In this document: piece after piece, positions 2,086 to 47,122 of the stretch
Layout of the letters: the number at the start of each line of letters is the position of its first letter
Position numbering within the stretch: position 1 is the stretch's first letter
Assembly: GCA_026397015.1 (NCBI GenBank)
Contig: JAPLVR010000006.1
Coordinates: 156,081-220,080 of the forward strand
DNA length: 64,000 bases
Origin: Candidatus Iainarchaeum sp.
Lineage (GTDB): Archaea; Iainarchaeota; Iainarchaeia; Iainarchaeales; JAAZKV01
Direction of reading: 5' to 3'
Translations under genes and position numbers: made by a program
The notes under the pieces: model-generated
The model's input: only the letters and a program-made list of their open reading frames with translations
The model's database searches: none
Told to the model about the DNA's origin: nothing

Positions 2086-2122
2086 ATTTAAAAAGGCTTT
2101 GAGGGTTCCATGCCGGTGGAAC
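2086..2122 (-). promoter_or_regulatory. Conserved box (TTCCACCGGCATG) plus BRE/TATA of the polB-like gene
   Basis: Minus strand ttccaccggcatggaaccctcaaagcctttttaaat; same layout as at radA and nurA. Confidence 0.7.
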
Positions 2123-2477
2123 CGAAAAACCTGGTTCGGCGGATTTTGCCCCGCATCCTTCTTGTCGGCAGATGTTTCATCCGAAAAAGTCTTAGAGAAG
2201 CTTTTGGATCGGCAACATTTCTTGCAACGGTTTTGAAAACGGAGCCGCTTCTTCTGAGGCGGGCATCTTCTTTCGCTTTTCTCGCAAATTGTTCCCGAAT
2301 TGATTTTGAAAACAAATCAACTTTTTGTTCGCGCGACAACTTTGAAGGTTTTGTTCGAAATGGTGCAGCGTCGCGAGCCCGCCACGCGCCGAATACTTCC
2401 TTCACGGCGGCGTCTGCCCGCGCATGTTCACGAACGCTTTGATTAAGTCTTCTTCTGAAAAGCGCCCTTCTCACCAT
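2088..2477 (-). CDS. Arg/Lys-rich hypothetical protein
   Basis: ATG with aggag SD; fills the gap between herA and polB; very basic. Confidence 0.6.
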   Translation of the reverse strand: MVRRALFRRRLNQSVREHARADAAVKEVFGAWRARDAAPFRTKPSKLSREQKVDLFSKSIREQFARKAKEDARLRRSGSVFKTVARNVADPKASLRLFRMKHLPTRRMRGKIRRTRFFGSTGMEPSKPF

Positions 2478-2576
2478 TCAATCTCCTAATGAGAATTCGG
2501 TCTTTGAAGGATATAAATTTTTTGGGTGCCGCTTAAATGGGTTTTTAATCCGAATAAAAAAATGTCAAGCCAAAAA

Positions 2577-4157
2577 TCACAAAAAAGTGTCCGCCTCATC
2601 TTCCGCCGATTCCTGCGAGGCGGCATACATTTTCGCGGCTTCCTCAAGCGAAAACTCGTGCTTGCTCGGCTGCGACTTTCTGTTGCGCACCCTGAAAAAG
2701 GTCGGCGCATTAACTGCCTCGCCCAAAAGCAACGCTTCACCTACACGAAGGGAAGAGACAAGGTCCATGCTAGATTTGTCAAGGGCTTCGCTGCTCTGTG
2801 CAATATGATCCAAATCGTAGGGATTGGTTATTCGCAAAATTACATTAGTATTGCAGTTTGCAAGAGTTGTAGTGTCAAGGTGCTTTGGGCGCTGGGAAAT
2901 TATCACAAGAGAGGCGCCGAACTTCCTTCCTTCTCTTGCAATCGTCCGCAGTATTCCCTTTGCAATCGCATGCTCTTCCCCCGTTTTTTCAGGGATGAAG
3001 TTATGCGCCTCTTCAAGGAAAAGAGAAAAGGGCGGAACTCTTTTGGAACGCCTTGAATGGAACAATTTGTGCGCAAAGTAAGCGACAATTATCTGTTTCT
3101 TGCGCTGTGAAATAATCCCGCTTAAGTCGATTACCGTTAACTGCCCGGATTTAACCAAATCTAAAACGCTTGGGTTGTCAATCTTTGAAAACAAATCCAA
3201 GTCTTCGAGCTCGCCGACGGTTGCCAAAATCGTTGAAGCGGTTTTTTCATTCAAATCCGACTGCATCACCTCTGTTTTAATTGTGTTTAAATCGAAGGGA
3301 CCGACACCAGATTTCATCTCCGAAGAAAGTTTTGAAATTATTGAGGAAAGGTCGCGCCTTTGGGGCGTTGAAAGTTTCGGCAAAATCATTGAGAGAAACG
3401 CAGAGTCAAGTTTTGAAGCCGCAATCTTAACTTTTGAAGCGTCAACAATCCGCGTTTTCGAAGAAAAATCAACATATTTTTTATCCTTCACGGGCTCGCC
3501 GAAACACGTGTACTCGCCGTGAATATCAAAAACAATTACTGCCACCTGCCCCTGTTCTTTTTTCCGCGAAAGCAATTCTTCTATCAGCGACGCGGCGAAA
3601 ACAGATTTTCCTGCTCCGCTCAACGCAAGGACTGCAAGATGCTTTTGCAGCAAACGGGAGAGATTTGGCGAAACTTCAACGTTGTGAAATTGCATCGTTC
3701 CAAGCTTCAATCCCTCGTTGTCGAAACCCAAAAATTCTGTCAACCGCGAATCATCAGCCTTGAAAACTTTTGTTCCGGGAGAAGGGGGAAAGGTGGTGCG
3801 CTCAACAATAACTTTTCCTTCGGAATTTTTTTTGAACACACCGAGCGGCTTCGCCTTTCCGAGCAAAAACTCCCATTCGGCGGTCGGAAACTTCCTCTCC
3901 AACTCCTCTCCGATTTCTTTAACGGAATCAGGGCGCTCAAAATACTTATTCGTTTTTATCACATCATTTATGCGGCAAATCATTGTGCCCTCCGAATACT
4001 CGAGCTCGACAAACATCCCTTTGTGCGCCTTTCCGTTGTTAACGACAAAATCGACGGTTGAGGGCGAAGGGCCTTCGAAAGTGGAAACCACTGTTCCCAA
4101 AACTTCCCTTGCACCTTCAGCATTTTTGCCACTCGTTTCTTTTACTTTCACAACCAT
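2577..4157 (-). CDS. herA: HerA DNA helicase/ATPase
   Basis: HAS barrel, HLAVLALSGAGKS Walker A, DIHGEY, EEAHNF, AREGRKFG, SQRP. Confidence 0.92.
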   Translation of the reverse strand: MVVKVKETSGKNAEGAREVLGTVVSTFEGPSPSTVDFVVNNGKAHKGMFVELEYSEGTMICRINDVIKTNKYFERPDSVKEIGEELERKFPTAEWEFLLGKAKPLGVFKKNSEGKVIVERTTFPPSPGTKVFKADDSRLTEFLGFDNEGLKLGTMQFHNVEVSPNLSRLLQKHLAVLALSGAGKSVFAASLIEELLSRKKEQGQVAVIVFDIHGEYTCFGEPVKDKKYVDFSSKTRIVDASKVKIAASKLDSAFLSMILPKLSTPQRRDLSSIISKLSSEMKSGVGPFDLNTIKTEVMQSDLNEKTASTILATVGELEDLDLFSKIDNPSVLDLVKSGQLTVIDLSGIISQRKKQIIVAYFAHKLFHSRRSKRVPPFSLFLEEAHNFIPEKTGEEHAIAKGILRTIAREGRKFGASLVIISQRPKHLDTTTLANCNTNVILRITNPYDLDHIAQSSEALDKSSMDLVSSLRVGEALLLGEAVNAPTFFRVRNRKSQPSKHEFSLEEAAKMYAASQESAEDEADTFL

Positions 4158-4169
4158 AAAAAACCCCTC

Positions 4170-4838
4170 TCATTTTTTGTTAAGCTCTCCCAAAATTCTG
4201 AAAATTTCATCCAAAGACTTTATTCTGAACTCGGCTTTTATGCCGTGATCACTTTGAATGCGAACCTTCCTTTCAATAATACAATTATGCATGCCGACAG
4301 CACCAGCACCCCCCGCATCCGAAGCCGGAGTATCGCCAACCATCAGACATTCATTTGGTTTAACGCCAAAATGGTTCATTACAAATTCAAAATTTTTTGT
4401 GCTGGGTTTCAAGTCTCCGACAACAAAGCTATACGCTAAAAGGTCAAAATAATCCTTCAAATGGAGTTTTTCTTCGACTTCTTTCATATTGAAGCTTTCA
4501 GTATTGGACAATAAAGCCAACTTGTAGCCCTGTTTCTTAATTTTTTTAAGAGCATTTTCAACATCTGGAAAATAATAAATCTTATCAAACCGGTTGAAAT
4601 AAATTTCATAGAGGGCTTCTTCCAATAACACATTGTCTGCTTCGCCGAATTCCACAAAAAAATCCCTCCGAAGTTCTTCAAACGAACCATATTTTTTTAA
4701 CTGCACCGCACGCTCATAACGCAAAATAAAATCATCTATATCAAAACTCCCTTTTTTCAGAAGAAACCGCAAATGCACGAAATCAATCGTTGGAGGAATG
4801 AGCGTATTCCACAAATCAAAAATCACAACCTTAATCAT
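4170..4838 (-). CDS. HAD-superfamily hydrolase
   Basis: FDLWNTL motif I, LSN, KP, MVGD...D. Confidence 0.9.
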   Translation of the reverse strand: MIKVVIFDLWNTLIPPTIDFVHLRFLLKKGSFDIDDFILRYERAVQLKKYGSFEELRRDFFVEFGEADNVLLEEALYEIYFNRFDKIYYFPDVENALKKIKKQGYKLALLSNTESFNMKEVEEKLHLKDYFDLLAYSFVVGDLKPSTKNFEFVMNHFGVKPNECLMVGDTPASDAGGAGAVGMHNCIIERKVRIQSDHGIKAEFRIKSLDEIFRILGELNKK

Positions 4839-4872
4839 TTTTTCACCATCAGCTGCCTGCCAAAAAATTTTT

Positions 4873-5964
4873 TCACCCGAAGGGGCGCGCATTCCTGCGG
4901 AGCATAATCTTCGCTCCGACCTTATCGATTAATTTCTCGTAAATAATATTAATCTCATTTGGGCTAAGCCGCGCCCTCAAATCCGCCTCAATCAAAACAC
5001 TTGGAAAAACATACTCCTTGTGCAAAGCACTCAAAGAAAAAACAACTTCGGCAATTTCGTCCGCACAACCCTTCAAATCCGCTATAGAATTTTTTTTGCA
5101 AATGAACTCGACCCTCAGAGGCTTGTCAAATTTCGAAACCTTCAGGTAAAAAACAAAAATGCTTTCAGACCATTCCTTTGAATAATCCTTCAGAATTGCA
5201 TGGTTATCAGTATTTTTTGTGTAAGGGAAAGCGAATGTTCTTTCGCCCTCGTTCAAAAAATAATCCAAAAAAATCGAGTCGAAGGTTTTTTCGAGCGTAT
5301 TCGGTGCAACTGAAACTCCCTTGGCTTTCGGAAGGATTTCCTCGCGCATTATTTGATTAAACCTTGAGCCCCTCGAATCCTCAACACACGCAATCAAAGT
5401 GCAGCTGTTTTTCTCCGCAATCTTGTAGAGGATTTGAAAGTGTTCGACAATCGATTTGTAATCTTCATTTATTGCGGATTCCCTGCGCGGCTTGTCCTGG
5501 TACTGCGGAACGATTGAGCCGTCGATGAAAAAATATTTTGGCTTAAATTTTTCAATCACCTCGATTGAAAGGGAAACTTCCTTGCGCAAACGCTCTAAGG
5601 AAGTGCTCTGCCCGACCTCGTCATTTTCAAGCGAAGAGCGGAGCATAATCGGTTCGGGAAAGGAAACTATTTTCGGAAAATAAGCGGAGCTTTGAAGCAA
5701 CCCCTTATCATATTCAAAAACCACCCCTGCTGTTTTAATCAGCAGCAAATCAAGGAAAGCAAGTTTTTTCGGGGCGAAGCCGGAATCAACTCCCGCAACT
5801 ACTGCTGAAAGTTGCTCGCGCGCAACTGTTTCGACAATTTTTTCCCCGGAATTCGGCGCATTTTGAAATTTCAAATAAGAAAGTTTGTTTCCCAACGATT
5901 CGTGGAACGAATGATACTGCTGAATAGCAGAAACTGCCCTATCCATAAAATCGTTGATGGCCAT
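4873..5964 (-). CDS. nurA: NurA 5'-3' nuclease
   Basis: AGVDSG, E-R, FIDGS, P..L.EAD..AR; co-oriented with herA. Confidence 0.88.
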   Translation of the reverse strand: MAINDFMDRAVSAIQQYHSFHESLGNKLSYLKFQNAPNSGEKIVETVAREQLSAVVAGVDSGFAPKKLAFLDLLLIKTAGVVFEYDKGLLQSSAYFPKIVSFPEPIMLRSSLENDEVGQSTSLERLRKEVSLSIEVIEKFKPKYFFIDGSIVPQYQDKPRRESAINEDYKSIVEHFQILYKIAEKNSCTLIACVEDSRGSRFNQIMREEILPKAKGVSVAPNTLEKTFDSIFLDYFLNEGERTFAFPYTKNTDNHAILKDYSKEWSESIFVFYLKVSKFDKPLRVEFICKKNSIADLKGCADEIAEVVFSLSALHKEYVFPSVLIEADLRARLSPNEINIIYEKLIDKVGAKIMLRRNARPFG

Positions 5965-6002
5965 GAAGTCAGCCAATAAAAACAATATAGAAGGAATTCT
6001 TT

Positions 6003-6040
6003 AATATAAAAAGGTTTGGAAGGGTGCGTGCCAGTGGAAA
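6003..6040 (-). promoter_or_regulatory. Conserved box (TTTCCACTGGCACG) plus BRE/TATA of nurA-HAD-herA
   Basis: Minus strand tttccactggcacgcacccttccaaacctttttatatt. Confidence 0.7.
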
Positions 6041-6061
6041 AATCTAATGGTTTTGCCAGGG

Positions 6062-6112
6062 CTTTTTTCGCCGGCCCTTGTTTTTCGCCAGCCTTTTTCG
6101 AAAAAAGGCTGA
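6062..6112. repeat. Palindromic mini-element (GCC-T5-loop-A6-GGC + GGCGAAAA), intergenic copy
   Basis: Minus strand cagccttttttcgaaaaaggctggcgaaaaa; matches the 5' part of both tRNA-Gly introns. Confidence 0.65.
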
Positions 6113-6146
6113 TAAGAAGATTTGCAGGGAGACGTGCCGGTGGAAA

Positions 6147-6395
6147 CTAAAAACCAATTTCTCTTAAAATTTCCTTGGCCTTTTCAGGGGTTAAGCCGTG
6201 CCCCAAAAGATAGCTTTCTACGTAACCCTTCGAAACCCCCTTCCGCCTAAAAAAGCCAGCATCAATCTTTCTTCTCAAAAGAGTTTTTGCAGGGTCTTTG
6301 GTACGAATGGCTCGTACCAAAATCCTGGAAACAGGCGACCCTCCATGATGCGGCTTACCGCCGGGAAACCCTCTTGGTTTTACTACAGGACACAT
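6147..6395 (-). CDS. Small basic hypothetical protein
   Basis: 82 aa ORF with its own boxed promoter at about 6461-6496. Confidence 0.55.
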   Translation of the reverse strand: MCPVVKPRGFPGGKPHHGGSPVSRILVRAIRTKDPAKTLLRRKIDAGFFRRKGVSKGYVESYLLGHGLTPEKAKEILREIGF

Positions 6396-6502
6396 ATGAG
6401 ATAACCACTGTAGAGGAAATATAAATGCTTTTCCATTCTGTTAGCCCTAACTAATTTTCAATAAAAAAAGGTTTCCGGGCGGCGTGCCGGTGAAATCCCA
6501 AA

Positions 6503-7255
6503 TTAACTCCGAGTTGAAATCGCCCTTTTCCTAATTTCAAGTATTTCTGTCCACGTCGTTGGATTCTCGGTAACCAGACGCGCCAAAAAACTTTTCGAAC
6601 ATTTTTGTCCCCATTCCATCTTAAGCCGCACAGCTACAAGAGCTGAACGGAGCCCCAAAATAGCTTCAGCTTTATAATTTTTTACTGGAAAAAACGGCCC
6701 AAACTCAAGATCTTTTATTTTTTTTGATTCGTAGCTTCCGGTCAAAAAATTACTTTGCGCAAACGGATTAAGGCGATTAACGAATAAATCTTGGAAAGTA
6801 AAAGCATAAGCGGCGACTTCATTTCCGCCAAGAATATGAACAAACTCGTGATTCAATAACTCAATAGTCTCAGGGCGCCTCAAAGACCTTTCAGGAACAA
6901 AAATGTGCATACCTTTATTAGTCCGAAATCCGGCCGCTTCCATTTCGCCAGATGCAAACGACAAAGTTGAAAAAATATCGTCAGGAACGATACAAACCCT
7001 TTGAATTAATTTCTGCACTAACACTTTATTATTGCCCAAACCGAGAACCGAAAGAACGCTTCTCGCCTCTTTTCGAAGAGGCGCCGAGAAAGGGCGCCTG
7101 TATCTTTCACGACCATATTTTTGCAAAACCTTGGCCCTTATCCCATTCTGTGCAGCCGATAGGGGATTCATTAGTAATGGATTTTTGGGCTCACGCTTAC
7201 CCATTACTGCTAAAAACTTTTTCGCCCCTTGGGAAGAGCGAGCCGTTGAAACCAT
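6503..7255 (-). CDS. Basic hypothetical protein with HExxH (zincin-like) motif
   Basis: LNHEFVHILGGNEVAAY; start moved to MVSTARS because the longer ORF overlaps a tRNA. Confidence 0.6.
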   Translation of the reverse strand: MVSTARSSQGAKKFLAVMGKREPKNPLLMNPLSAAQNGIRAKVLQKYGRERYRRPFSAPLRKEARSVLSVLGLGNNKVLVQKLIQRVCIVPDDIFSTLSFASGEMEAAGFRTNKGMHIFVPERSLRRPETIELLNHEFVHILGGNEVAAYAFTFQDLFVNRLNPFAQSNFLTGSYESKKIKDLEFGPFFPVKNYKAEAILGLRSALVAVRLKMEWGQKCSKSFLARLVTENPTTWTEILEIRKRAISTRS

Positions 7256-7302
7256 GTTTAATTTATGCAAAAGGGCATATTTATTGATTTGTATCCAAAA
7301 AA

Positions 7303-7373
7303 TGGACCGTGCGGGAATCGAACCCACATCGAATCAATGCCATTGATCCAGCCTACCTTTGGCAGAACGGCCC
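7303..7373 (-). tRNA. tRNA-Ala(GGC)
   Basis: Acceptor GGGCCGT/ACGGTCC with G3:U70; anticodon stem GATCA/TGATT, loop ATGGCAT; T-loop TTCGATT. Confidence 0.85.
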
Positions 7374-7475
7374 CGACACGAAAAATAATCTGGGAAAAAT
7401 TATTAAAGCACACCAATCAACACATTCCCGGCCGCACCAAACCATTTAAATACCTTCATATGAAGAATAATTCAT

Positions 7476-7796
7476 ATGAAAGTGGAGTCATTTGAACAGG
7501 CCTGCGGGCTCAACTGCTTCGAGATCTTGGGGAACAAACTCAGGGTTTCAATAATAAAATCCCTCATAAAAAAACCGAAAACAGTGCAGAAACTTTGCGA
7601 CGAGCTCAAAAGGGAACAGAGCGCGGTCAGCCACGCGCTCGCGCAGCTGAGGGAATGCAATTTTGTGGATTACAAAAGAAAGGGAAAAGAGAAAGAATAC
7701 TTTCTCAAAAGCGGAATCTTCACCAAAAAAATGAACAAACCGCTGTTCGAAGCCATTGAAGAGCACGCAAAGAAACACTGCAGAGTGAGACGATGA
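7476..7796 (+). CDS. ArsR-family transcriptional regulator
   Basis: F..LGN..R..I, QSAVSHAL..L...FV...R.GK...Y; first gene of the iscSU operon. Confidence 0.88.
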   Translation: MKVESFEQACGLNCFEILGNKLRVSIIKSLIKKPKTVQKLCDELKREQSAVSHALAQLRECNFVDYKRKGKEKEYFLKSGIFTKKMNKPLFEAIEEHAKKHCRVRR

Positions 7797-8989: not shown

Positions 8990-9423
8990 AAGTTGAAGGG
9001 CAGGATTGGTTCTATTCAAAAACAGTTAAAGAACATTTTATGAAACCGAAAAACTTCCTGAATGATTTGAAAGAAGTCAAAGGTTTCAACGGGTACGGAA
9101 AAACCGGCAATATGAAATGCGGGGACGTAATGGAAATGTGGATAAAAGTTGCTGACGGAAGGATAAAGGGGTGCAAATGGCGGACTTTTGGGTGCGCCTC
9201 TGCAATTGCGTCCACTTCAATTCTTTCCGAAATGGTTACGGAAAAAGGCGGAATGAAAATCGAGGATGCGTTAAAAATAACGGGAAAAGAAATAATGGAA
9301 AGGCTCGGCGGATTGCCCGCGGTGAAGGTTCATTGCTCCGTGCTTGGGGACCAGGCGCTAAGAGAAGCGATAAAGGATTATGAGAAAAAACAAAGCAATA
9401 AAAAAACAAAGCAGAACAAATAA
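8986..9423 (+). CDS. iscU: Fe-S scaffold IscU/NifU
   Basis: EHF..PKN, CGD, FGCASAIAS, LP..K.HCS; ATG overlaps the iscS stop. Confidence 0.95.
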   Translation: MKVEGQDWFYSKTVKEHFMKPKNFLNDLKEVKGFNGYGKTGNMKCGDVMEMWIKVADGRIKGCKWRTFGCASAIASTSILSEMVTEKGGMKIEDALKITGKEIMERLGGLPAVKVHCSVLGDQALREAIKDYEKKQSNKKTKQNK

Positions 9424-9443
9424 TTCAAAAGAAGGGATTTGAA

Positions 9444-9785
9444 ATGGGGTCCGTGCAATACATAATTGTAAACAAAGGAATAAACATGAAAAATGGGAAA
9501 ACCTGTGCTCAGGTTGCACACGCTTCTCTTGAAGTGCTTGACAAGGTCGACCCCGAAATAATCAAGGCGTGGAGGCTTCAGGGAATGAAAAAGGTTGTAC
9601 TGAAAGTTAAGGGTGACATGGAACTGCTCGAATTGTTTGAAAGGGCAAAAAAGGAACTGCCCTGCGCGCTGATAACTGACGCGGGGCACACACAAGTTGC
9701 TGCAGGGTCGAAAACCTGTTTCGCCTGCGGGCCGGTGGAAGAGGCGAAAGGCGCGAAATATTTTAAGCACTTAAAACTGCTTTAG
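9444..9785 (+). CDS. pth2: Peptidyl-tRNA hydrolase Pth2
   Basis: GK..AQVAHAS, KKVVLKV, DAGHTQ...GS.T. Confidence 0.95.
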   Translation: MGSVQYIIVNKGINMKNGKTCAQVAHASLEVLDKVDPEIIKAWRLQGMKKVVLKVKGDMELLELFERAKKELPCALITDAGHTQVAAGSKTCFACGPVEEAKGAKYFKHLKLL

Positions 9786-19932: not shown

Positions 19933-20568
19933 CTAGTGAAGGGCTTCATCCAAAAAAGGCTTTATTTGGGCAAAAACCTCCTCAATCGGGACATTCGCGT
20001 CAATCACCTTTATATTTTCCTCCGGAAGAAGCTTTGGTTGCCCCAAAAAAAGCCCCCTCAAATTTGAAATGAACCCAATGCTTCGAAATTTGTCGGATTC
20101 TTTTCTTTTTTCCGACTTTTCGGAATGCATGCGCCTATGGGCTTCTTTCGGATTAACGTCAAGAATCAGGGCTAAATCGGGCGCCAAAAAGTTTTTGTGT
20201 GCGGCAAAAACTTTGTTAAAATCTTTTCCCTGTGCTGTTTGGTAGGCAATGCTCGAATATTTGTAGCGGTCGCAAATCACGACAAAATTTTTTTCCAAAG
20301 AAGGTTTGATGATATTTTCAATATGCCACTTTCTGTCATCCACAAAAAGCTGGAATATTTCTTCGGCATAATCCGCCGAAGATTTCTGCTTTTTGAAATA
20401 TTCTCTCAATTTTAATCCGTGCGGGCCGCGCGTGGGCTCATCCGTTATGAGAATATTGTCATACTTTTTGCTTTTATCATAAATGTATTCGAAAGTTTTC
20501 TTCACCATGGTTCCTTTGCCGCAGCCTGAAATGCCGTCAAAAACAATAAAAGTCCCCTTCCTCATCAA
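19933..20568 (-). CDS. tmk: Thymidylate kinase
   Basis: FIVFDG..GCGKGT, EPT, DR..H, CDRY..SS.AYQ, PDL. Confidence 0.9.
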   Translation of the reverse strand: MMRKGTFIVFDGISGCGKGTMVKKTFEYIYDKSKKYDNILITDEPTRGPHGLKLREYFKKQKSSADYAEEIFQLFVDDRKWHIENIIKPSLEKNFVVICDRYKYSSIAYQTAQGKDFNKVFAAHKNFLAPDLALILDVNPKEAHRRMHSEKSEKRKESDKFRSIGFISNLRGLFLGQPKLLPEENIKVIDANVPIEEVFAQIKPFLDEALH

Positions 20569-20592
20569 ACCACTGCCAACGCAATATCCTCT

Positions 20593-21237
20593 TTATTTGT
20601 CCAAAACCCTTTTTACCCCTTTCCAAACCATTTCGTGAATTGCTTCAATTGAAAGAAGCTTTTCCTTTTCAACACAGGAAATTTTTTTCCAACCCAACTT
20701 TTCAGTATTGCGTTCGTACTCCCCGAAAATCGCGCGCTGAAAATTAGAATCCGATTCATGCTGGTCTTTTTTTTGATTTCTGCCATTCATTAATTTTTCA
20801 GCGATATTCGGCGGAACGGAAAGAACCAGCACCAAATCCGGTTTTGGCAATTTTTTACAAACAAAATTAATCCACTCCCGCAAAGAATCTTTTTCGTTTT
20901 CTTTTGCAAGCGCGACCTGATAAGTAAGGGTCGAGGTAAAATACCTGCTCATCAAAACGGTTTTTCCTTCAGAGAGCGCATTTTCAATCTGTTTTTTTGA
21001 TTCATAAAAATCGGCCATATAAAGCAGGGAGATGAATTCTGCCGGCAAATCCTCTTTTCTGCCAAATTTTCCTTCCAAGTAATCGTCGACAACCTTTCCG
21101 AAAGAAACTCCGTGCTTCGGAAAATGCATTTGAACAAGCCGGGCGCCTTCTTTTTGCAAATGTTCCGCAAGAAGATTTAGCTGAGTTGTTTTGCCGGAAG
21201 CATCCGTGCCTTCCAAAACAATTAATTTTCCTTTCAT
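20593..21237 (-). CDS. tmk: Thymidylate kinase-like paralog
   Basis: LIVLEG.DASGKTTQ, FP, SRYF.S...YQ, PKPDL, D.HE. Confidence 0.85.
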   Translation of the reverse strand: MKGKLIVLEGTDASGKTTQLNLLAEHLQKEGARLVQMHFPKHGVSFGKVVDDYLEGKFGRKEDLPAEFISLLYMADFYESKKQIENALSEGKTVLMSRYFTSTLTYQVALAKENEKDSLREWINFVCKKLPKPDLVLVLSVPPNIAEKLMNGRNQKKDQHESDSNFQRAIFGEYERNTEKLGWKKISCVEKEKLLSIEAIHEMVWKGVKRVLDK

Positions 21238-21696: not shown

Positions 21697-22428
21697 TTAC
21701 AAGTCATACAAAAGTATTGTCTTTGTTTCAGGAATGTAAAACATATTGTGCGTCCCAATATCACAATATACCGGGAGCTTTGCAGATTCCACCGCTTTTT
21801 TAAGCTTCAACATTGCCATGAAAGCCGGCACGAATCTGATTTTGCTGTCGCGTAGTTGGACAACCTCACCTTTGTTAAAAAAATCAGTCACGAAATACAT
21901 CGACCCTCCGCCCCTACCATAAATTACATTGGGTTTTATTGTACGAATATTGATTTTCCCGATTCTGTGATTAATACTTTCCAATACCCCTTCCATTTGC
22001 AAATACGCATTTGCTGTCCTTTCCACATCCATTCCCGGAGGATATGTTTTGACAAAAAACTCTTTATTGCCCGCAGTTACTTTAAGAAGCATTTCATGCA
22101 TCGACCCAAGATCGGTGCCAGTGGCGCCGTGTTGAATTTTAATGCCCCTTTTTCGATCGGAAATTATTTCGCCTTTTTCCAGACGTTTTTTATTTTTTTC
22201 AATCAATCGGTATGTTGGTATCAGAATCCCTTTGTTTTTTCTAACAAAATCTTTCATTTCTGGGGAATATGCAAATAAATTTTTTTTGGGAAGTGCGTAC
22301 CGGCCCCTCTTTCGCGTTATTCTCAAATTGGTTTTATTCATTGCAACATTTGAGGCAACTACTTTTGGTGCAGTAACCAATGTTTTAAGCCGTTTTCTGA
22401 GCCATTTTTTAATCCCAGTAAATGCCAT
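21697..22428 (-). CDS. Protein-kinase-like fold protein with basic N-terminus
   Basis: EFFVK, then DIGTHN (DxxxxN) and LLYD; paralog of 44923-45708. Confidence 0.6.
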   Translation of the reverse strand: MAFTGIKKWLRKRLKTLVTAPKVVASNVAMNKTNLRITRKRGRYALPKKNLFAYSPEMKDFVRKNKGILIPTYRLIEKNKKRLEKGEIISDRKRGIKIQHGATGTDLGSMHEMLLKVTAGNKEFFVKTYPPGMDVERTANAYLQMEGVLESINHRIGKINIRTIKPNVIYGRGGGSMYFVTDFFNKGEVVQLRDSKIRFVPAFMAMLKLKKAVESAKLPVYCDIGTHNMFYIPETKTILLYDL

Positions 22429-27734: not shown

Positions 27735-28019
27735 ATGGAAAAAAAATTGAAGCCGAACCAGAAACTGGCGCTGGAAAGGATTTACAGGCTTTTTGAGCTG
27801 GCTGAAGAGGACAACACAAAAAGAAAGGGCAAATACTCCAAACGCTACCTAAAATTAATGGTTGAAATCGGAAAAAAAGTTAATGTGCCGGTGCCAAAAG
27901 AACTGAAGAAAAAGTTCTGCAAAAAATGCTTTTCCTTAAATGTTGACGGAAGAGAAGAAAAACCATTTTTGATTGTGAAATGCGGGGAATGCGGATTTGA
28001 GAAAAAATTTTCGGCTTAA
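27735..28019 (+). CDS. rnp4: RNase P protein component 4 (Rpp21/Rpr2)
   Basis: ALERI..LFELA, RY, FCKKC...C.ECG. Confidence 0.9.
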   Translation: MEKKLKPNQKLALERIYRLFELAEEDNTKRKGKYSKRYLKLMVEIGKKVNVPVPKELKKKFCKKCFSLNVDGREEKPFLIVKCGECGFEKKFSA

Positions 28020-35778: not shown

Positions 35779-35814
35779 GTCACCGGCATTTAAGTCTAGA
35801 AAACAATAAATATT
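35779..35814 (+). promoter_or_regulatory. Conserved box (CACCGGCAT) plus BRE/TATA-like element of the Mrr-like gene
   Basis: gtcaccggcatttaagtctagaaaacaataaata; spacing matches the other copies. Confidence 0.45.
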
Positions 35815-35833: not shown

Positions 35834-36876
35834 ATGGAATATCCTCTTCTATTTTATTGCGGAAAGAGACCTGACAACTGTCAAAGCCAAATGAAAAAGG
35901 ATTTAATAAAATACGTCAAAGAGGAAAGCAAAAAACACCATTTTCCATCTCGGAGAGAACTTCAAAACAAATTTCACTTTCGACTAGACCCCTTTTCAAT
36001 GGAATCGAAGAACTATATGCTTTTGCTGGGCTGGCATACAAACTCGCCCCAGACCAAAATGAAAAAGTTATAAAGGCAACAATGTTATTAGAACTAATTC
36101 TCAATAACTTATACAAGCTTGATTTAACCTTAATTAAATACAGGACAGCAACTGAAAGGGGTATAGATATAGTTGCCAAAAAAAATAATGCATTAGTTGG
36201 CATTGAATTGAAGGCATATAATTCTGGCGAAGCACTTAAAACCAAAGACTTTAAGCAAGTCAAAAAAGCCATTGTAAATGAAAACCTTGATAAAGCACTT
36301 ATCATAACTACCACAAGCAAAGTAAACAAACAAGTTAAACCAAATAACCAAATTCAGATAATAAATTACGACCAACTGAGTTATTTGCTTGGAGAAACGG
36401 CACTTGAAACACTTAATTATATTCGAAATTCTTCAGTAAATAAAATCAGCATTACAAGGGAAATAAACAAGAAGAGAATACTCAATTATATTTTTACAGA
36501 ATATTCCACAAATGGCAGAAAGCCCTGTTGCAACGACATAGCCAAAGATTTACGATTGCATATTTATACTTATTTTGATAGTCTTTTTACTATTTATAAA
36601 ACACTAAACATTTTGCCGCCAACAACAAAAATGAAAGGAACTCGATCCAAACAACCTGATAAAGAACTTATTGAGATGTGGAAAACCGAATTTAAGAAAT
36701 ACATTCTAGAAGAAGTAAAATATGACAGATACCCCTCAGGAGAAAAAGTTGGAAAACACTTAGGAGTATCGCACATATGGAACATAGTTAAGATTTCTGA
36801 CTTATACAAGGAACTTGGTTTAATACCATATAGAGAACGGTCAAAAAGAAAACTCACTCTCCGCGCAGAATCTTGA
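35834..36876 (+). pseudogene. Mrr-like restriction endonuclease gene split by a -1 frameshift near 35995
   Basis: GIDIVA..GIELKAY (PD-D/ExK); the -1 frame reads FNGIEELYAFAGL into ORF 36082; repeated PS...LY..GL modules. Confidence 0.7.
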
Positions 36877-39088: not shown

Positions 39089-39092
39089 AAAA

Positions 39093-40645: not shown

Positions 40646-40823
40646 AAGGATTATTAACCACTTAACGTGGAACATGTGCCCGAAAAGAGAAAAAAATGCT
40701 TGTCAAAAAAAGGGCCGAGATTAGAAAACCGAAGAGGTTTCGATACCTTTAAATAACAAAAATACCTTCTTCTAGAAGAGAAGCGGTGATGTGAATCACT
40801 GCAAGGCAAAGGGGGGAGAAAAC

Positions 40824-41528
40824 ATGCTTGGAAAAATATTTAATTTCTTTTTTAATCCAGAAACAGAGGTTGCAGGTGAAATAAAAAACGCAAACATCTT
40901 GCGCGGAATAAAGAATTACAACATAATGCCACTAATTTTTGCAATATTGATAGGCATAGTGGTAAGCGCCTTTGCTGTAACGATAGGGCCTGCTATCCTG
41001 TCAAACCCATTACTGAATTCGAATCCCGCAGTGCCGATGCTACTGTCTATCGGAACGCTCGCAATAGTGATTTTGCCAATATTGTCACTAATATTAGTAA
41101 CTGTTATCACACTGATCGGAGGTTTGTTAATCTGGGCATCAACAAAAATTCTCGGCGGAAAAGCGACATTCACCCAAATATACTACGTCTCGTCAGTGCT
41201 TGCCATCGCATATGTAATAATCGCAGGAATCCCGTTTATTATAGGCACTATCATGCAGAACATGCCGCTCTTGGCATTAATTTTCCCATCAATGACAACT
41301 GTCCTACAAATAGTGTCAATAGCTTCATTAATTTTCCTGATACCCGCATACGCAATAATGACTTATTTCGGGTATGCCAGTTGGTTAATCTTAAAGCGCC
41401 TAACCGGACTGAGCAATAAAAAACTAATCATTTCAACAATCATTACCATAATACTTGCAATTATTTTGATTATTATCATCGGTGCATTGATTGTATTGAT
41501 GGCTAGTGCAGCAACCGCCGGCAGATAA
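40824..41528 (+). CDS. Yip1-like membrane protein
   Basis: Multiple TMs; K.LGG.ATF motif. Confidence 0.65.
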   Translation: MLGKIFNFFFNPETEVAGEIKNANILRGIKNYNIMPLIFAILIGIVVSAFAVTIGPAILSNPLLNSNPAVPMLLSIGTLAIVILPILSLILVTVITLIGGLLIWASTKILGGKATFTQIYYVSSVLAIAYVIIAGIPFIIGTIMQNMPLLALIFPSMTTVLQIVSIASLIFLIPAYAIMTYFGYASWLILKRLTGLSNKKLIISTIITIILAIILIIIIGALIVLMASAATAGR

Positions 41529-41549
41529 ACCAAAAAAAATTTTCTTTTT

Positions 41550-42169
41550 TTATTTTCTTATTCGCCTCGGCCGTGCCGGCTTAATTTGCGACAAAACACG
41601 TTTTTTTAAAAACCTGCCCCTGTTTCTGCTGAACCTATAACCTGACATCGGGATATGCGCTCTTCTAAAATTAACGTTGTGGTGCTTGAATATGCGCTTC
41701 AATTTTTCTGAAGCGGCAACAAAAGTTATTTCTTTCCCGAAATTTTTCTGTGCATTAACCCATGCATTGAAATTTTCCCAAACTTTTGAAAATTCTTTTT
41801 GGGAAAGCGGTTTGCTGAGAGTAAAACCGGCATAACCGACAACATTTGCCTTATAGTTTATGCCTGCAATTATTCCTACTTCTGCCCTCTTTATCAGCAT
41901 CAAATCCGAAAGAATTTCGAGGTCATCACCGGAAGGCATCATGTACGGGGATCTTTCCCTTCCGATTGGAAGATGGGTGTGAATGAAGTAATGCGACTTC
42001 GGAAAAACCCTTAGGCTTGGAAGCGCAAAAGAATCAATCGCGCTTCCGGCCAATCTTACCAATTGAAGTTTTTTTTATGAAGTTTTTCGGCAGACCAAAC
42101 TTTTTCGCCCTTCATTAAGCCCGGTGTTTGTTCGATTTGCATATGAACGGGAATTTTCTTTTCAGCCAT
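41550..42169 (-). CDS. JAB/MPN+-like metalloenzyme split by a -1 frameshift at an A8 run (42069-42076)
   Basis: IHTH.....PSGDD motif; upstream ATG 42169 frame joins by a -1 shift at A-AAA-AAC. Confidence 0.55.
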
Positions 42170-42237
42170 ATAATCGCACAGGTATTAGCGTCAGTTGGAA
42201 TTAATATTACTTTTCCTGCTTAATTTTTTAGATTTAA

Positions 42238-43053
42238 ATGATTCAACTGGTTCAAAGCGGGGCCTTGCTTATCGGAACACTTGCCGGCGCCATAACGGAC
42301 GCGAAAAGCGGCTACATTTACGACTGGATAACTGTTCCGATGATTTTATTTGGCGCCTTGATAAGCATATTTTTTGGGCAATGGAACAACCTTCTTGTCG
42401 GTGCAGCGGTTTTCGCCGCGCTCTATATTTCTTACTGGCTTGGGAAAATAGGCGGGGGGGATGTGAAAATATTTACTGCGATTGCGCTGCTGAATCCATT
42501 CAATAATTACGGATTTTTTTTCGGGGCAGCATTCTTCGCGGCAATGAGCTCAATCGTGTTCTATTCGGTTTATTACACGCTAAAATACTCGAAAAAAGGG
42601 GTTGATTTTGAGGAAAATAAAGAAGGAATAGTACAGGCGATTTTGTTGGGAATATTTCTGGCGGCGTATTTTGTTGCCGCAATTAAATTCGGGCTTTTTG
42701 GAAAAACCGTCGTTTTCATGCTTGGATTCCCGCTCTTTTGCGGACTTATTTTCTTCGCCCTGCAAAAAGGAATAAAAAAAAATTTCTTCCGAAAAAAAGT
42801 TCCATTAAAAAATTTGGAAGAGGACGAAATAATTTCAACCGAAGGAAATTCCGAAAAGATTTTGAAAATCTTTATGGTAAAGGGAGTGATGAAAAAGGGC
42901 GTAATCGGGGAAAAAGAAATTGCAAAATTAAAAAAAATGAAAATCAAAAACATTTACGTTCTGAGGGGGTTGCCGCCTTTCGGACCATTTATTTTTGCAG
43001 GAGTTGCAATTGCGCTCCTAGCGCCGGATTTCTTCACGCTTTTATCCGCCTGA
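42238..43053 (+). CDS. A24 prepilin/preflagellin peptidase
   Basis: TD...G.I.D, GGGDVK, PF.PF. Confidence 0.88.
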   Translation: MIQLVQSGALLIGTLAGAITDAKSGYIYDWITVPMILFGALISIFFGQWNNLLVGAAVFAALYISYWLGKIGGGDVKIFTAIALLNPFNNYGFFFGAAFFAAMSSIVFYSVYYTLKYSKKGVDFEENKEGIVQAILLGIFLAAYFVAAIKFGLFGKTVVFMLGFPLFCGLIFFALQKGIKKNFFRKKVPLKNLEEDEIISTEGNSEKILKIFMVKGVMKKGVIGEKEIAKLKKMKIKNIYVLRGLPPFGPFIFAGVAIALLAPDFFTLLSA

Positions 43054-43126
43054 AAAAATCATGAAAAAAAGGCAAAAAAGAGAAGCAACAGCATTAATTT
43101 AAAACAACTTAAACTATTTTATCCTT

Positions 43127-44014
43127 ATGAGAATTCTTGTAACCGGATCAAGCGGCATGGTCGGAAGGTTCCTTGTGGCGGAACTCAAAAACAGAAAACA
43201 CTCTGTGAAGGAATTTGACGCCACGAACGGGCACGATGTTCTGGACATGGAAGAGGTTCAGAAGGCGGTAAAAGGCGCAGACGCCGTTTTTCACCTTGCG
43301 GCGGTTATTGAAAATGAAAATCCAAAACTTTGGGAAGTGAATGTAAAGGGAACGGAAAATTTAATCGGGGCGGCAATAAAGGCGAAAGTGCGAAAATTTG
43401 TTTTACTGAGCTCGACGGGGGTTTATGGATTTACAAAAAAAACGGTGGACGAGAAAAGCCCGCTAAATCCGGAAAACAAATACGAAGAAAGCAAACTGGC
43501 CGCAGAACGGGCTGTTTTTTTGCATAAAAACGAAATTGATGCTTTTGTAGTTAGAAGCGCGATGATACTTGGGCCGAACAAATACTGGGCAAAAATGTTC
43601 AAGATGATAAGAAAAAAAATGCCCCTGCCCTGTGACGGAAAAAATTCTTTCCAGGTAATTCACGTGAAGGATGTTGCAAACGGCCTCATAGCTGCAATGC
43701 AAAAAGGAAAAAGCGGGGAAATTTACCTCCTCGGAGGCGACGAAAAAATAACGCTGAATGAGTTCTGCGAAATTGTTCAGGAAAAATTCGGGCTGAAAAA
43801 AGGAATGAAGCACATTCCTGAAATCATTGCCCTAATAATTGGAAAAATTTTGAGAATAGATGTTTTGACGCGGGAAAACATAGGGCATATTTCAAGGGAA
43901 AAAAACTATTCTCTCGCGAAAATAAAAAAGATTGGCTGGAAACCGAAAGCGGCAATGAAAAAAAGAATCTGGGAAACGATTGAAGAGCTGAAAGAAGAAC
44001 TTCTTCTGGAATAA
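43127..44014 (+). CDS. NAD-dependent epimerase/dehydratase
   Basis: VTGSSGMVG, HLAA, YEESK. Confidence 0.9.
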   Translation: MRILVTGSSGMVGRFLVAELKNRKHSVKEFDATNGHDVLDMEEVQKAVKGADAVFHLAAVIENENPKLWEVNVKGTENLIGAAIKAKVRKFVLLSSTGVYGFTKKTVDEKSPLNPENKYEESKLAAERAVFLHKNEIDAFVVRSAMILGPNKYWAKMFKMIRKKMPLPCDGKNSFQVIHVKDVANGLIAAMQKGKSGEIYLLGGDEKITLNEFCEIVQEKFGLKKGMKHIPEIIALIIGKILRIDVLTRENIGHISREKNYSLAKIKKIGWKPKAAMKKRIWETIEELKEELLLE

Positions 44015-44035
44015 ATTTTGTGTGGGCAAAAAAAA

Positions 44036-44812
44036 CTATTGCTTCGCCTTCGCTCCGCGCCTAACGGCCGAAACCATTTTTTTCAGGCGTGATTCAATTT
44101 CTTTGCCAGATTTCGCGCTTTCAATCGCGGAGCCTACCTGAACGACATCTGCGCCTGAAAAAATGCAGTCGTAGGCAAATCTCGGAGTCCGCACGCCGCC
44201 CGCAATAAGCAAAGGAATCTCAATAGATTTTTTGGTATAGGAAATCATTTCTTTCGGAACCGGCTGCGGAGCGCCGCCGCCGGACTCCAAAATAACGAGC
44301 TTCGAACCCATGTACTCGCCGGCGAGCGCGTTCGCAGCGGCAAGATAAGGGAGATTTCGCGGAATCAACTGGGCGCGGCCCATAAAGCCGACCGCCCTTC
44401 CCGGCTTAACGATAATATAAGAAGTCGGAATAACTTCAATGCCCATTCGCTTTATTGGAAAAGACGCGACTGTTTGTGCGCCTGAAATATAATAAGGGTC
44501 GTTGCTGTTCATCATCGTCATAAAATAAACTGCGTCCGCGAACTCGGAGAGCGTTGCAACGTTTCCGGGAAACAAAATAACGGGAAGGGAAGAACTGCGC
44601 TTCATCTCCAAAATAGTGTCGTCAAGAAGCTTTCCCTGTGCGCCGAGGGAACCGCCGACGGCAATTGCGTTTGCGCCCGCTTTCTCCGCTATTTTGGCAA
44701 TTTTTCCTGCCTGTTCAGGGGCCTGGTTGGGGGGATCAACAACCAAAAAGAGCTGTCCCGCTTCCTCTTTTAACTGTGCAATCAATTTTGAATACACTTT
44801 TCCAGGTTTCAT
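44036..44812 (-). CDS. Geranylgeranylglyceryl phosphate synthase
   Basis: VDP, VGGS, PVILFPGN, NS.DP..I.GAQ, LESG.GA..PVP, GGVR. Confidence 0.9.
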   Translation of the reverse strand: MKPGKVYSKLIAQLKEEAGQLFLVVDPPNQAPEQAGKIAKIAEKAGANAIAVGGSLGAQGKLLDDTILEMKRSSSLPVILFPGNVATLSEFADAVYFMTMMNSNDPYYISGAQTVASFPIKRMGIEVIPTSYIIVKPGRAVGFMGRAQLIPRNLPYLAAANALAGEYMGSKLVILESGGGAPQPVPKEMISYTKKSIEIPLLIAGGVRTPRFAYDCIFSGADVVQVGSAIESAKSGKEIESRLKKMVSAVRRGAKAKQ

Positions 44813-44922
44813 AAGCTTCACTATTGCCCCAAATACAGCTGCAAATATTCTGGGAAAATGGGTATAAAAAGGAATTGTTTTTTTGGAAAAGCAAAATACA
44901 AATATGCTGATTTTGCCAAATT

Positions 44923-45708
44923 TCAGTACGCCCATTCCGCCCACTCAGGCAACACGATATCGAGCAAAAAAATAGTGTTTGATTTTGGATGATACGCACA
45001 ATTTTCACCGCGTATATCGCCGACGCGTCCCCTAGTCTTCTTATGCAAAAGGTCATTAAGTTTGTCAATAACTTCTATCTGTTTTTTGTACTTCCTGCTG
45101 TAATCCCCAAAGTAAACAAATTCGCCTTTTTTTAAAAAATCTGTCACCATCCAAAGAGGATTATCGTCCACAAAAATATTCTTCCTCACCCGTACTTCCC
45201 TGTCCGAAAGCTCCTTCTCGTAAATCAAGTGCGGTTTCAACAACCTTATGTTAAATCCGCTGATACGATTGTGATGGACAGCCAAATATTTTTCAACCGG
45301 CCCGATTGCATGCAACCACATTTCCGCGTCCTCCGCATTTGTGCGCTTTACAAAAAATTCTTTTCCGCGAAAAGTGACCTTTAAGCGAATGGTTCCGTGC
45401 CATGTTTTCCAACCGGTCCCCCTGCCGCCGGTTCTTGCCTTTTGAATTGTTATTCCACTTTTTCTATCAACTACCGGCTTCCCGGAATTGAGAAGCTTGA
45501 GATTATCTTCAATTAATTTGTAAGTTGGAATAAGAACTCTGCGGTTTCTTCCAACAAACCGCTTAAATTCCGGCGAATATGCCAAGTAGGCAAAAGTCAT
45601 TCTTTGACGCCCTGCTCCCTTGAATCTGATTTTTGTAACCCTTTGTTTCGCCAGAAAAGGCTTTGAATAATCGGCCAACTGCCTTCTTGAAATTTTTTTA
45701 AGCACCAT
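44923..45708 (-). CDS. Protein-kinase-like fold protein with basic N-terminus
   Basis: EFFVK, DIRGEN, FLLD; shares AYSPE..F..N..LIPTY with 21697-22428. Confidence 0.6.
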   Translation of the reverse strand: MVLKKISRRQLADYSKPFLAKQRVTKIRFKGAGRQRMTFAYLAYSPEFKRFVGRNRRVLIPTYKLIEDNLKLLNSGKPVVDRKSGITIQKARTGGRGTGWKTWHGTIRLKVTFRGKEFFVKRTNAEDAEMWLHAIGPVEKYLAVHHNRISGFNIRLLKPHLIYEKELSDREVRVRKNIFVDDNPLWMVTDFLKKGEFVYFGDYSRKYKKQIEVIDKLNDLLHKKTRGRVGDIRGENCAYHPKSNTIFLLDIVLPEWAEWAY

Positions 45709-45801
45709 GCACACAAATCAGTTTTTGTTGCTTTTAATTCTTCCTTTCCTTACATCAACAATAAAAATTGTTGTGGGTTTCAATAGAATGCCGTGTGTTG
45801 A

Positions 45802-47058
45802 ATGAAAGAAGAGCCTACTGAAAAAATTGTTTCCGAAATCGCGAAAAAAAGCGGAAAAAGCGAAATTGAAGTAAGCAGGCTCATCGCAGAAAAGGTGGAA
45901 AAATTTTCAGGACTGTTGACGGAACAGGGCGCCGCCTACATGGTGGGAAAAGCACTCGGCGTTGGCGGAAAAGCGGCGGAATACTCCCTTATTTCAGAAT
46001 TGGAAGAGGGGATGCGCGGAGCGGAATTAAGGGGCGAAGTCAAAGCGGTTTTTCCGGCAAAAGAATTTGATAAGGGCGGAAAGAAAGGAAAAGTGCAGTC
46101 AATAATAATTGAGGATGAAAGCGGGGAAATAAGACTGAGCCTCTGGAACGACCAGGTTGACAAATATAAACTAACAAAAGGAAGCCGAGTGGAAATAACA
46201 AATGCCATAATCTCAACCTACAACGAAAAAAAACAATTAAGCCTGGGCTTCAACGGAACCATTACAGTTACAAAAAAAGCGGAGGAAAAATTTGAAAAAC
46301 TCGCGAATTTAAGAGGCGGGTTAAGTTCTGTTAATGTCGCGGGAAAACTGCTTAGAAGGTTTCCTGCAAAAGAATTTTCCTCGGGAGAAAGAAGAGGGAA
46401 GCTCTGCAACTTCCAGTTAGGAGATGAAACGGCTATTTTAAGGGCGACCGCGTGGAATGAAAAGGCGGATGAAATCGAAAAATACAACGAAGGGGAAAAC
46501 ATTGAAATCATAAACGGATACACAAAGGACGGGATGTTCGGCGTAGAACTGCACCTCGGTTACAGCGTGGAAATCAGGGTGAGCGGCATGCAAATGCCCG
46601 GGATAAAGGAAATTTTAAAAGAAGCGATTCCTGAAAAAAAAATAAACGAACTGGTGGACAATGAAAATTCATCAATAAGCGGAAAAATTTCAGAAATTTC
46701 ACGCGGAAACCTAAGGTACCTGATTTGCGGCAAATGCGGGAAAAAAATAAAGAAAATGGAAAACGGGGTTGTGTGCGAATCGTGCGGCGAGGTCGAGCCC
46801 AAAAGCAGGGCAATAATTTCAATCATTCTTGAGGACGAAACGGGAAAAATAAAAGTGACCCTTTTCGGCGAGGACGCGCTGAAAATATTTGGGATAACAC
46901 AGCAGCAATTCGAAAAGGAACTCGCCGAAAAAGAAGCGGAAACAATCTGCGAAGAGCTGAACGAAAAACTTGCGGGAGAAAGGATAGGCGCTTACGGTTA
47001 TACCAAAGAAAATTCATTCAGCGGCGAAAGGGAATTCATGGTAAAAGCACTTCTTTAA
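45802..47058 (+). CDS. rpa: Replication protein A (3 OB folds + Zn finger)
   Basis: DE.G.I...W repeats, C.KCGKK...C..CG; upstream of radA. Confidence 0.88.
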   Translation: MKEEPTEKIVSEIAKKSGKSEIEVSRLIAEKVEKFSGLLTEQGAAYMVGKALGVGGKAAEYSLISELEEGMRGAELRGEVKAVFPAKEFDKGGKKGKVQSIIIEDESGEIRLSLWNDQVDKYKLTKGSRVEITNAIISTYNEKKQLSLGFNGTITVTKKAEEKFEKLANLRGGLSSVNVAGKLLRRFPAKEFSSGERRGKLCNFQLGDETAILRATAWNEKADEIEKYNEGENIEIINGYTKDGMFGVELHLGYSVEIRVSGMQMPGIKEILKEAIPEKKINELVDNENSSISGKISEISRGNLRYLICGKCGKKIKKMENGVVCESCGEVEPKSRAIISIILEDETGKIKVTLFGEDALKIFGITQQQFEKELAEKEAETICEELNEKLAGERIGAYGYTKENSFSGEREFMVKALL

Positions 47059-47090
47059 TTGATTCATAAAAAAATAAAATCAGCCCCAAT

Positions 47091-47122
47091 CACCGGCACG
47101 AAAGCTGGAAAGCATTTAAAAA
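47091..47122 (+). promoter_or_regulatory. Conserved box (CACCGGCACG) plus BRE/TATA of radA
   Basis: caccggcacgaaagctggaaagcatttaaaa. Confidence 0.7.

Follow-up and report, generated by a model that had tools for sequence, protein, structure and literature searches.

The 64-kb stretch of DNA analyzed here (the window; C1:156081-220080) belongs to an 898,628-bp, 6-contig assembly of Candidatus Iainarchaeum sp. (DPANN, Iainarchaeota; GC content about 0.42; 85% completeness; genome G000) and carries several DNA repair genes sharing a conserved promoter element, referred to below as the box. On the minus strand, nurA (4873-5964; NurA domain; orthologs in 39 of 41 related genomes), a HAD-family hydrolase gene (4170-4892) and herA (2577-4157; DUF87/HerA helicase), all recognized with Pfam, form a nurA-HAD-herA series, directly followed by the gene for a conserved, weakly PolB-like protein of 500 aa (561-2063). 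The promoter of the latter gene contains a 16-nt box (CACCGGCA + TGGAACCC; 2103-2118, minus strand) with a TATA box at about 2085-2094, the ATG 55 nt past the box start and the top matrix score (40.0 bits), and a CACTGGCA variant occupies the nurA-HAD-herA promoter (6021-6036, minus strand; TATA at about 6003-6012; 37.0 bits). On the plus strand, a box at 35781-35796 (TATA at about 35805-35814; 29.4 bits) precedes a 79-aa open reading frame (ORF; 35834-36073) and a gene for an Mrr_cat/Mrr_cat_2 restriction-endonuclease-like protein (36082-36876; Pfam), and another at 47091-47106 (TATA at 47115-47122; 36.7 bits) precedes radA (47167-48156; Rad51 family with HhH N-terminus; Pfam).

The original prediction, made from this stretch, had proposed a DNA damage regulon marked by an octamer at six promoters. 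All six octamers sit where it had placed them (2111-2118, 6029-6036, 6135-6142 and 6485-6492 on the minus strand; 35781-35788 and 47091-47098 on the plus strand), each oriented towards its downstream gene. CACYGGCAY occurs 8 times in the window, compared to a mean of 0.78 and a maximum of 4 in 100 dinucleotide shuffles, none of which reached 8. Upstream of nurA, three of the boxes follow one another as direct copies in less than 460 bp (6021-6492, minus strand), the sole such cluster genome-wide. The second of them (6127-6142), 106 nt upstream of the nurA box and just behind an 82-aa ORF, contains the predicted octamer but no convincing TATA box. The third (6477-6492; TATA at about 6459-6468) precedes the 82-aa ORF itself (6147-6395) and would drive either this ORF or a non-coding transcript. 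The ORF had been counted among the target genes; it was not found in any of 5 related genomes, one of them from the same genus, nor did it match a Pfam, NCBIfam or Rfam family, and we do not regard it as an established gene. An Rfam search of window positions 5900-6600 gave no match either. In addition to the six sites, a one-letter variant, CACCAGCA (57516-57523, minus strand), is of promoter type: with GGGAACCC it makes up a box with TATA at 57508-57523 (31.0 bits), just below tRNA-Lys and before short ORFs of 44 aa and 148 aa, the latter of which (56731-57177) is LAGLIDADG-like by eye, with no Pfam match. The matches at 22116-22123 (minus strand; 9-mer from 22115), 27886-27893 (9-mer from 27885) and 58344-58351 (8-mer) are located within long ORFs, have no TATA box and look like chance occurrences.

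Alignment of 20 promoter-type sites from this genome, with positions counted from the first C, revealed a directional element of 16 nt, (t)TTC-CACCGGCA-YGNAACYC, with the octamer as its 5' half; in this element, a weak T-rich TTC flank and CACCGGCA are followed by Y, G, N, A, A, C/G, Y and C. An A-rich B recognition element (BRE) follows at +20/+21, and all 20 sites have a TATA box (TTWWAWA) at +26 to +32; the distance between the end of the box and the AA of the BRE is 11-12 nt, as predicted, and that from the element end to the TATA box is 17-18 nt. No letters beyond the box and the TATA box are conserved in the matrix, and the sites are therefore not copies of a repeat. The minimal box across the family is YCGGCA-N4-RCYY, and in sister families the element takes the form CASYGGAAATGMACYC. 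The first ORF mostly starts 53-56 nt from the box start (about 11 sites in this genome), and an ORF start at +52 to +56 was found at 39 of the 80 sites collected from relatives (see below), so that the usual start lies 27-28 nt past the TATA edge. Given this position of the ATG, the mRNAs are probably leaderless or nearly so, which would place the box at about -55 to -40. The box is an upstream promoter element of about 16 nt, conserved and directional, with the fixed position and orientation just before BRE and TATA expected of an upstream activator site.

Genome-wide, exact CACCGGCA occurs 45 times, compared to 5-25 times in 10 Markov shuffles. Positional bias, a property on which the prediction had been staked beforehand, was evident: 17 of the 45 exact octamers are followed at a gap of 15-21 nt by a TATA-like hexamer (TTWWAW; background 0.0285, binomial P = 2.8e-15), against 4 of 45 in the reverse-complement orientation, and a TATA at the fixed gap was also found for 20 of 682 one-mismatch variants. 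A matrix scan for box and TATA at a threshold of at least 14 bits recovered 38 genomic sites, compared to 4-8 in 5 shuffled genomes. As had also been anticipated, the hits fall before repair genes. Exact or near-exact boxes precede radA, nurA-HAD-herA, the 500-aa protein gene, mcm (with an intein), recJ/GAN (DHH-CID), nreA, a PD-(D/E)XK Cas4-like nuclease gene, the Mrr-like nuclease gene behind the 79-aa ORF, and a Bro-N-like 91-aa ORF followed by a KaiC/RadB-like ATPase gene. More degenerate boxes are found at hef (DEAD helicase, ERCC4 and HhH; GACCGGCA), rad50 (CAGTGGCA) and the gene for an mre11-like phosphoesterase (CACCGGCG), each a one-letter variant, a group in which nreA can also be placed. 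Selfish and defence genes, among which the Mrr-like and Bro-N genes also count, form a further part of the set: four free-standing LAGLIDADG genes with a Pfam match (the 148-aa ORF of the window being a further remnant by eye), HicB-HicA, and ribbon-helix-helix, MazE-like and PIN genes. The remaining box genes encode DUF3800, DUF7718 with a winged helix-turn-helix (wHTH) protein, DUF488, a DUF2204 nucleotidyltransferase, a conserved 72-aa protein, a 160-aa ORF, a metallophosphoesterase and possibly PPDK. In total, the regulon comprises about 30 promoters in a 0.9-Mb genome.

In the upstream 110 nt, no box was found at RPA (located directly upstream of radA), Hjc, DnaG-like, two PCNA, RFC large and small subunit, PriL, GINS51, TopoVI, Topo I, UDG, both orc1, two thymidylate kinase and TFB genes, and the promoter of the genome's own PolB carries a weak variant. 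Because PCNA, RFC, PriL, GINS51 and other replication genes are devoid of it, the box set is one of break repair, recombination and fork rescue rather than of replication in general, MCM being the exception. Outside the window, one box, accompanied by a TATA-like stretch, immediately follows a tRNA gene at its 3' end and reads antisense into it (G000 C2:9783, minus strand); this site could be an integration-site remnant.

The box is conserved well beyond this genome. The pattern CACCGGCA-N16-19-TTWWAW was detected in 31 of the 41 relatives (individual ones appear below under handles such as G018), among them 22 of 24 other genomes of the same family, and the reversed pattern gave no match in 39 genomes and one match in each of 2. 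At orthologous promoters, scored for a sense-strand box with TATA no more than about 220 nt from the start, it was found at 23 of 27 usable RadA loci, 20 of 28 PolB-like loci, 15 of 28 MCM loci, 14 of 29 Hef loci and 13 of 28 NurA loci, but at none of the 29 RFC-S and 10 Orc1-b control loci; reversed promoters gave 0 in every set and reverse complements 0-1. Retention of the box at radA and nurA orthologs, the other outcome named in advance, is thus borne out. Many of the pattern-negative promoters display TCGGCA, ACGGCA or CTGGCA at the same spacing by eye, and the flanks diverge while the box stays at the same chromosomal orthologs across family and order. Among public RadA loci, some of which come from genomes present in both retrieval sets and are therefore not independent, box and TATA were found at 29 of 36 with at least 79% identity, 18 of 30 with 60-79% and 1 of 39 below 60%; the nearest are titled, e.g., 'Candidatus Iainarchaeum archaeon' or 'Candidatus Diapherotrites archaeon', and those below 60% are labelled Woesearchaeota, Nanoarchaeota, Thermoplasmata, Methanosarcinales and others. 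Some of these distant radA promoters have upstream elements of their own: TACTTTCACCC(N)GC, which contains ACTTTC and is compatible with the Sulfolobus ANTTTC, lies just upstream of TATA in loci labelled Methanosarcinales/Methanocellales (L320, L321, L323, L324, L327), and TTCTACTCTTYTCACAC is common to three loci labelled Nanoarchaeota/Woesearchaeota (L303-L305). Elements of this kind, specific to a lineage and located upstream of radA, may be common among archaea.

In 20 other genomes, 80 box sites were collected, of which 74 have a downstream ORF; 47 of the 74, one per obvious duplicate, were analyzed with Pfam. PolB-like genes follow the box in 10 genomes and Hef-like helicase genes in 3. 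Also represented are XPD/DEAD_2 (2 loci in G020), Rad50, NurA and RecJ/GAN, a radical-SAM 'DNA modification/repair' protein (2 relatives), Bro-N proteins (3 relatives) and ORF6N, the conserved 72-82-aa protein (4 relatives), LAGLIDADG, an RNase H-like exonuclease, an SSB-like OB fold, MazE, ribbon-helix-helix, PIN and ParE-like proteins. In sister families, the box reads CACCGGAAATGCACCC (many copies) and CAGTGGAAATGAACCC in G036, CACYGGAAATSTACTC in G034 and CACCGGAAAYGYACTC in G039, and a loose 16-mer pattern outnumbers its reversed control in G036 (72 versus 12), G039 (23 versus 5), G038 (25 versus 5) and G034 (16 versus 0), with 0 versus 0 in G026. Based on these data, we are confident that the box marks a real, conserved repair regulon. 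Literature searches found no description of the box or of an Iainarchaeota/Diapherotrites regulon.

MCM promoters contain another conserved element, YCCCAMHH, which lies 0-45 nt before the box and occurs at 22 of 29 MCM loci, versus 3-7 of 28-30 for RadA, PolB-like, Hef, NurA and RFC-S; at mcm of G000 (C1:43747, outside the window) it reads CTCCCACAC and abuts the box. This element may be a separate, replication-linked site. The MCM intein of G000 carries LAGLIDADG domains, and free-standing LAGLIDADG genes of the same genomes carry the box; inteins also interrupt RadA in G025 and G033 (open frames of 1059 and 1196 aa).

Within the regulon, the family of the 500-aa protein is the most constant; it has orthologs in 38 of the 41 genomes, always near nurA-herA and syntenic with them. 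The gene was not found in G030 and G031, both of which are also devoid of the exact box-plus-TATA pattern. The family comprises 194 representative clusters, none annotated; the 51 matches listed with annotations have no Pfam domain, are hypothetical where named and are labelled as Diapherotrites or simply as archaeon. Four cysteines are invariant (Cys249, Cys251, Cys252 and Cys351; NCxCC...C). The 500-aa protein by itself has no Pfam, NCBIfam or PDB sequence match and no DNA_pol_B or exonuclease domain. A profile of 29 sequences matches family-B polymerases (5mdn_A) at E = 0.04, with the motif A (DxxSLYPS) region aligned, and hhalign against the genome's own PolB (840 aa) aligns the same motif at 15% probability; the position of motif C reads ADQKG, so that the catalytic DTD is not kept, and a broader profile weakens the match to E = 0.74. 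Considering these values, the 'PolB-like' label of the original prediction is a lead rather than a finding. Degenerate catalytic motifs and, in that group, membership in a damage regulon are features of the 'inactivated' archaeal PolB2/Dpo2 (PMC8764526 and PMC6061795), from which the present family differs in the absence of a Pfam DNA_pol_B or exonuclease domain, the conserved Cys4 signature and its confinement to Diapherotrites-labelled records.

A second conserved family, of 72-82 aa (KIGxIEVAVWEN..KEGNKFFTTT..EEWKKT), lies behind the box in 5 genomes (G000 C5:326290-326508, minus strand; L149, L154, L168 and L198), and in four of the five its gene is located 280-324 nt downstream, a gap that possibly holds a structured leader or a small RNA. 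The 72-aa protein has no PDB or meaningful Pfam match; as a guess, it could be a PC4-like single-stranded DNA binder.

How might the box work? The best overall explanation, to which we assign a probability of roughly 0.6, is a regulon of repair genes driven by an activator, responsive to damage and perhaps bound by an Orc1/Cdc6 protein. A sequence-specific protein would bind each box as a single oriented unit and, from the usual archaeal activator position, aid the loading of TBP and TFB, so that the box genes would be switched on together, most likely upon DNA damage or fork stalling. An activating rather than repressing role is probable from the promoter geometry, and a damage or fork-stress signal is somewhat favored. 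The binder would most likely be one of the two Orc1/Cdc6 paralogs, because the box resembles a single origin recognition box (ORB) in core and 3' flank, as with Orc1-2 of Sulfolobales but with a different motif and gene set; this assignment is tentative, and we put it at somewhat below an even chance. The two paralogs, a (C5:311250-312563; about 437 aa; Cdc6_lid and Cdc6_C winged helix) and b (C1:98017-99084; 356 aa; TIGR02928 at 4.6e-75), are found in almost all 41 genomes, for which reason the phyletic profile of paralog b, compared with box presence, was not discriminating.

The gel-shift oligonucleotides for P. furiosus ORBs share GAGTTT(C/T)ATTTCCACTGGA, or TTCCAGTGGAAAT(G/A)AAACTC on the other strand (PMC1904270). 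Compared by eye with these printed Pyrococcus sequences, the ORB likeness claimed for the box appears to hold and to become stronger in sister families, the boxes of which match over the core and the 3' flank, CAGTGGAAATGAACCC sharing 13 consecutive letters. In this genome, TTC-CACCGGCA-YGNAACYC fits ORB with one gap and three core changes (by eye), and the second half-dyad reads GGCA, versus GGAA in ORB. Box and ORB (PMC1904270) are both asymmetric and about 16-20 nt long and, by eye, appear to have in common the core TTCCA-S-Y-GG-M-A, with similar flanks on one side (ATGAAACTC in the Pyrococcus ORB; YGNAACYC or ATGMACYC in the box), the box being one nucleotide shorter, with GGCAYG in this family where Pyrococcus has GGAAAT. 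By contrast, ORBs are clustered and usually inverted around an AT-rich stretch beside orc1, whereas the box occurs as a single copy, or as three direct copies, at a fixed distance from TATA in about 30 promoters. Canonical ORB cores show no intergenic clustering in G000.

Sulfolobales Orc1-2, which binds ANTTTC (20-bp AATAGTTTCRGWDTACTCWS) in promoters of damage genes, including that of Dpo2 (PolB2), and activates them (PMC6061795), is the closest working precedent, although motif and gene set differ. In both cases, many genes share a short conserved element located just upstream of their core promoters; the Sulfolobales regulator is an Orc1/Cdc6 paralog with winged-helix and initiator-specific motif (ISM) domains which acts positively, and the present genome has two Orc1/Cdc6 paralogs; and the odd family-B polymerase of the Sulfolobales set may have a counterpart in the PolB-like gene of the box set. 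The Sulfolobus damage set reportedly comprises ups pili, ced DNA import, tfb3 and dpo2 and not recombination genes, unlike the core of the box regulon, which consists of radA, rad50, the mre11-like gene, nurA-herA and hef and belongs to a DPANN lineage.

Several observations weigh against this explanation or parts of it. The link between Orc1/Cdc6 and the box is a sequence likeness judged by eye; the Sulfolobales DNA damage-responsive element, ANTTTC, differs from the box, CACCGGCA-N4-ACYC sharing with it just the loose T-rich TTC 5' flank. Neither orc1 promoter of this genome carries the box, and in 7 genomes the 1.6 kb preceding orc1-a and orc1-b contain no cluster of boxes or ORBs. The repeats in the candidate origin region next to orc1-a are different and unrelated, and the spacer beside orc1-b measures about 60 bp. 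Both paralogs are present in G026, which has 0 matches to the loose box pattern. The strict pattern fails at many orthologous promoters (e.g., 15 of 28 for NurA), some box promoters precede genes unrelated to DNA (PPDK, metallophosphoesterase, small ORFs), and MCM, a box gene, is a replication gene. The gene calls behind the target list are crude ORFs, with Pfam run on 150 of 915 and family searches across the genome.

A serious contender is that the regulon is as described but the regulator is another protein, a dedicated winged-helix or other factor, with the ORB likeness due to convergence or chance. The genome offers such binders: about a dozen winged-helix candidates, several of them weak matches, one Lrp/AsnC, one TrmB, an ArsR and ribbon-helix-helix proteins, and some candidates lie within the regulon itself, such as the HVO_A0114-type wHTH behind DUF7718, the ribbon-helix-helix protein and, in G018, an ArsR. 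The persistence of both Orc1 paralogs in the box-less G026 and the lack of boxes near the orc1 genes point in the same direction. However, dimeric wHTH, TrmB and Lrp factors typically bind palindromes, whereas the box has an asymmetric, bipartite structure, and its core and 3' flank both track the printed ORB. The genome also encodes one TBP, TFE and a single TFB, with no second TFB found; a WYL-domain regulator was not found in this 85% complete genome. Besides the normal two-repeat TBP (G000 C5:17377-17877), there is a half-size TBP-like ORF of 106 aa with one repeat about 1.1 kb upstream of mcm (G000 C1:42363-42680, plus strand).

In bacteria, a self-cleaving repressor binds the SOS box, a palindromic operator overlapping the promoter, and it is conceivable, if rather unlikely, that the present box is likewise a repressor site, keeping repair genes off until its protein dissociates, in the manner of LexA. 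The gene content is indeed SOS-like, combining a recombinase, nucleases, a specialised polymerase-like protein, toxin-antitoxin and selfish genes, and a DinD-like Bro-N gene. Unlike the SOS box, however, the box is asymmetric and oriented, lies entirely upstream of BRE and TATA at one fixed distance, and keeps a fixed helical phase with TATA, which fits recruitment, whereas archaeal repressors usually overlap TATA/BRE or the start site. Archaeal activator sites of the Ptr2, TFB-RF1 and GvpE type lie directly upstream of BRE/TATA with fixed phasing and recruit TBP/TFB; they are mostly dyad-symmetric and serve small metabolic or single-operon regulons. The box resembles them in position and phasing and differs in being asymmetric and serving a larger regulon.

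Control by the cell cycle or replication, in the manner of E2F/MCB, in place of a damage response would accommodate the membership of mcm and recJ/GAN, as well as the cell-cycle role of Orc1/Cdc6. This appears unlikely: not only PCNA, RFC, PriL, GINS51, TopoVI and Topo I but also RPA, DnaG-like, orc1 and the thymidylate kinases are without box, PolB has a weak variant, RFC-S orthologs score 0 of 29, and the members are mainly genes of end resection, recombination and fork rescue. A constitutive promoter-strength element without a switch, or a sequence spread by mobile genes, as the many boxed homing-endonuclease and toxin-antitoxin genes and the site abutting a tRNA 3' end might suggest, is very unlikely, considering that the box is kept at the same orthologs across family and order with diverging flanks, precedes only about 30 of roughly 900 ORFs and is lacking at other housekeeping promoters, and that the matrix holds no information outside box and TATA.

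Archaea lack LexA-type SOS control, and no damage-response network has been established outside Sulfolobales, according to PMC6061795. The box regulon provides a sharply defined cis-element, found throughout an uncultivated DPANN order, with a clear gene set that takes in almost all of the machinery for double-strand-break repair. It also suggests a likely repair role for the 194-cluster PolB-like family beside nurA-herA and for the conserved 72-aa protein, and presents selfish genes connected to a repair regulon of their host, a parallel to bacterial SOS. In a bolder scenario, which is doubtful, single elements derived from ORB have been co-opted as promoter switches, through which one of the two Orc1/Cdc6 paralogs, bound to one oriented box upstream of BRE/TATA, turns on a complete SOS-like regulon of recombination and break repair (radA, mre11-rad50, nurA-herA, hef, recJ, nreA and a PolB2-like gene), with homing-endonuclease and toxin-antitoxin genes riding along. 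If this scenario is correct, the regulon would be the first in archaea with the recombination machinery itself as the co-regulated core, and damage control by Orc1/Cdc6 would be ancient and common among archaea instead of peculiar to Sulfolobales.

Other features of the window lie apart from the box genes. A tandem pair of thymidylate kinase genes is located at 19936-21237 (minus strand). Long RelA/SpoT homologs are uncommon in archaea, and this DPANN genome encodes a full-length one, with HD, RelA_SpoT, TGS and ACT domains (51598-53436, plus strand). At window positions 56000-64000, the GC content falls to 0.36-0.38, and the region contains three tRNA genes (57559-57910 and 59363-59437), a tyrosine integrase gene (62055-63173, minus strand) and several ORFs without family assignment, and is possibly an integrated element.

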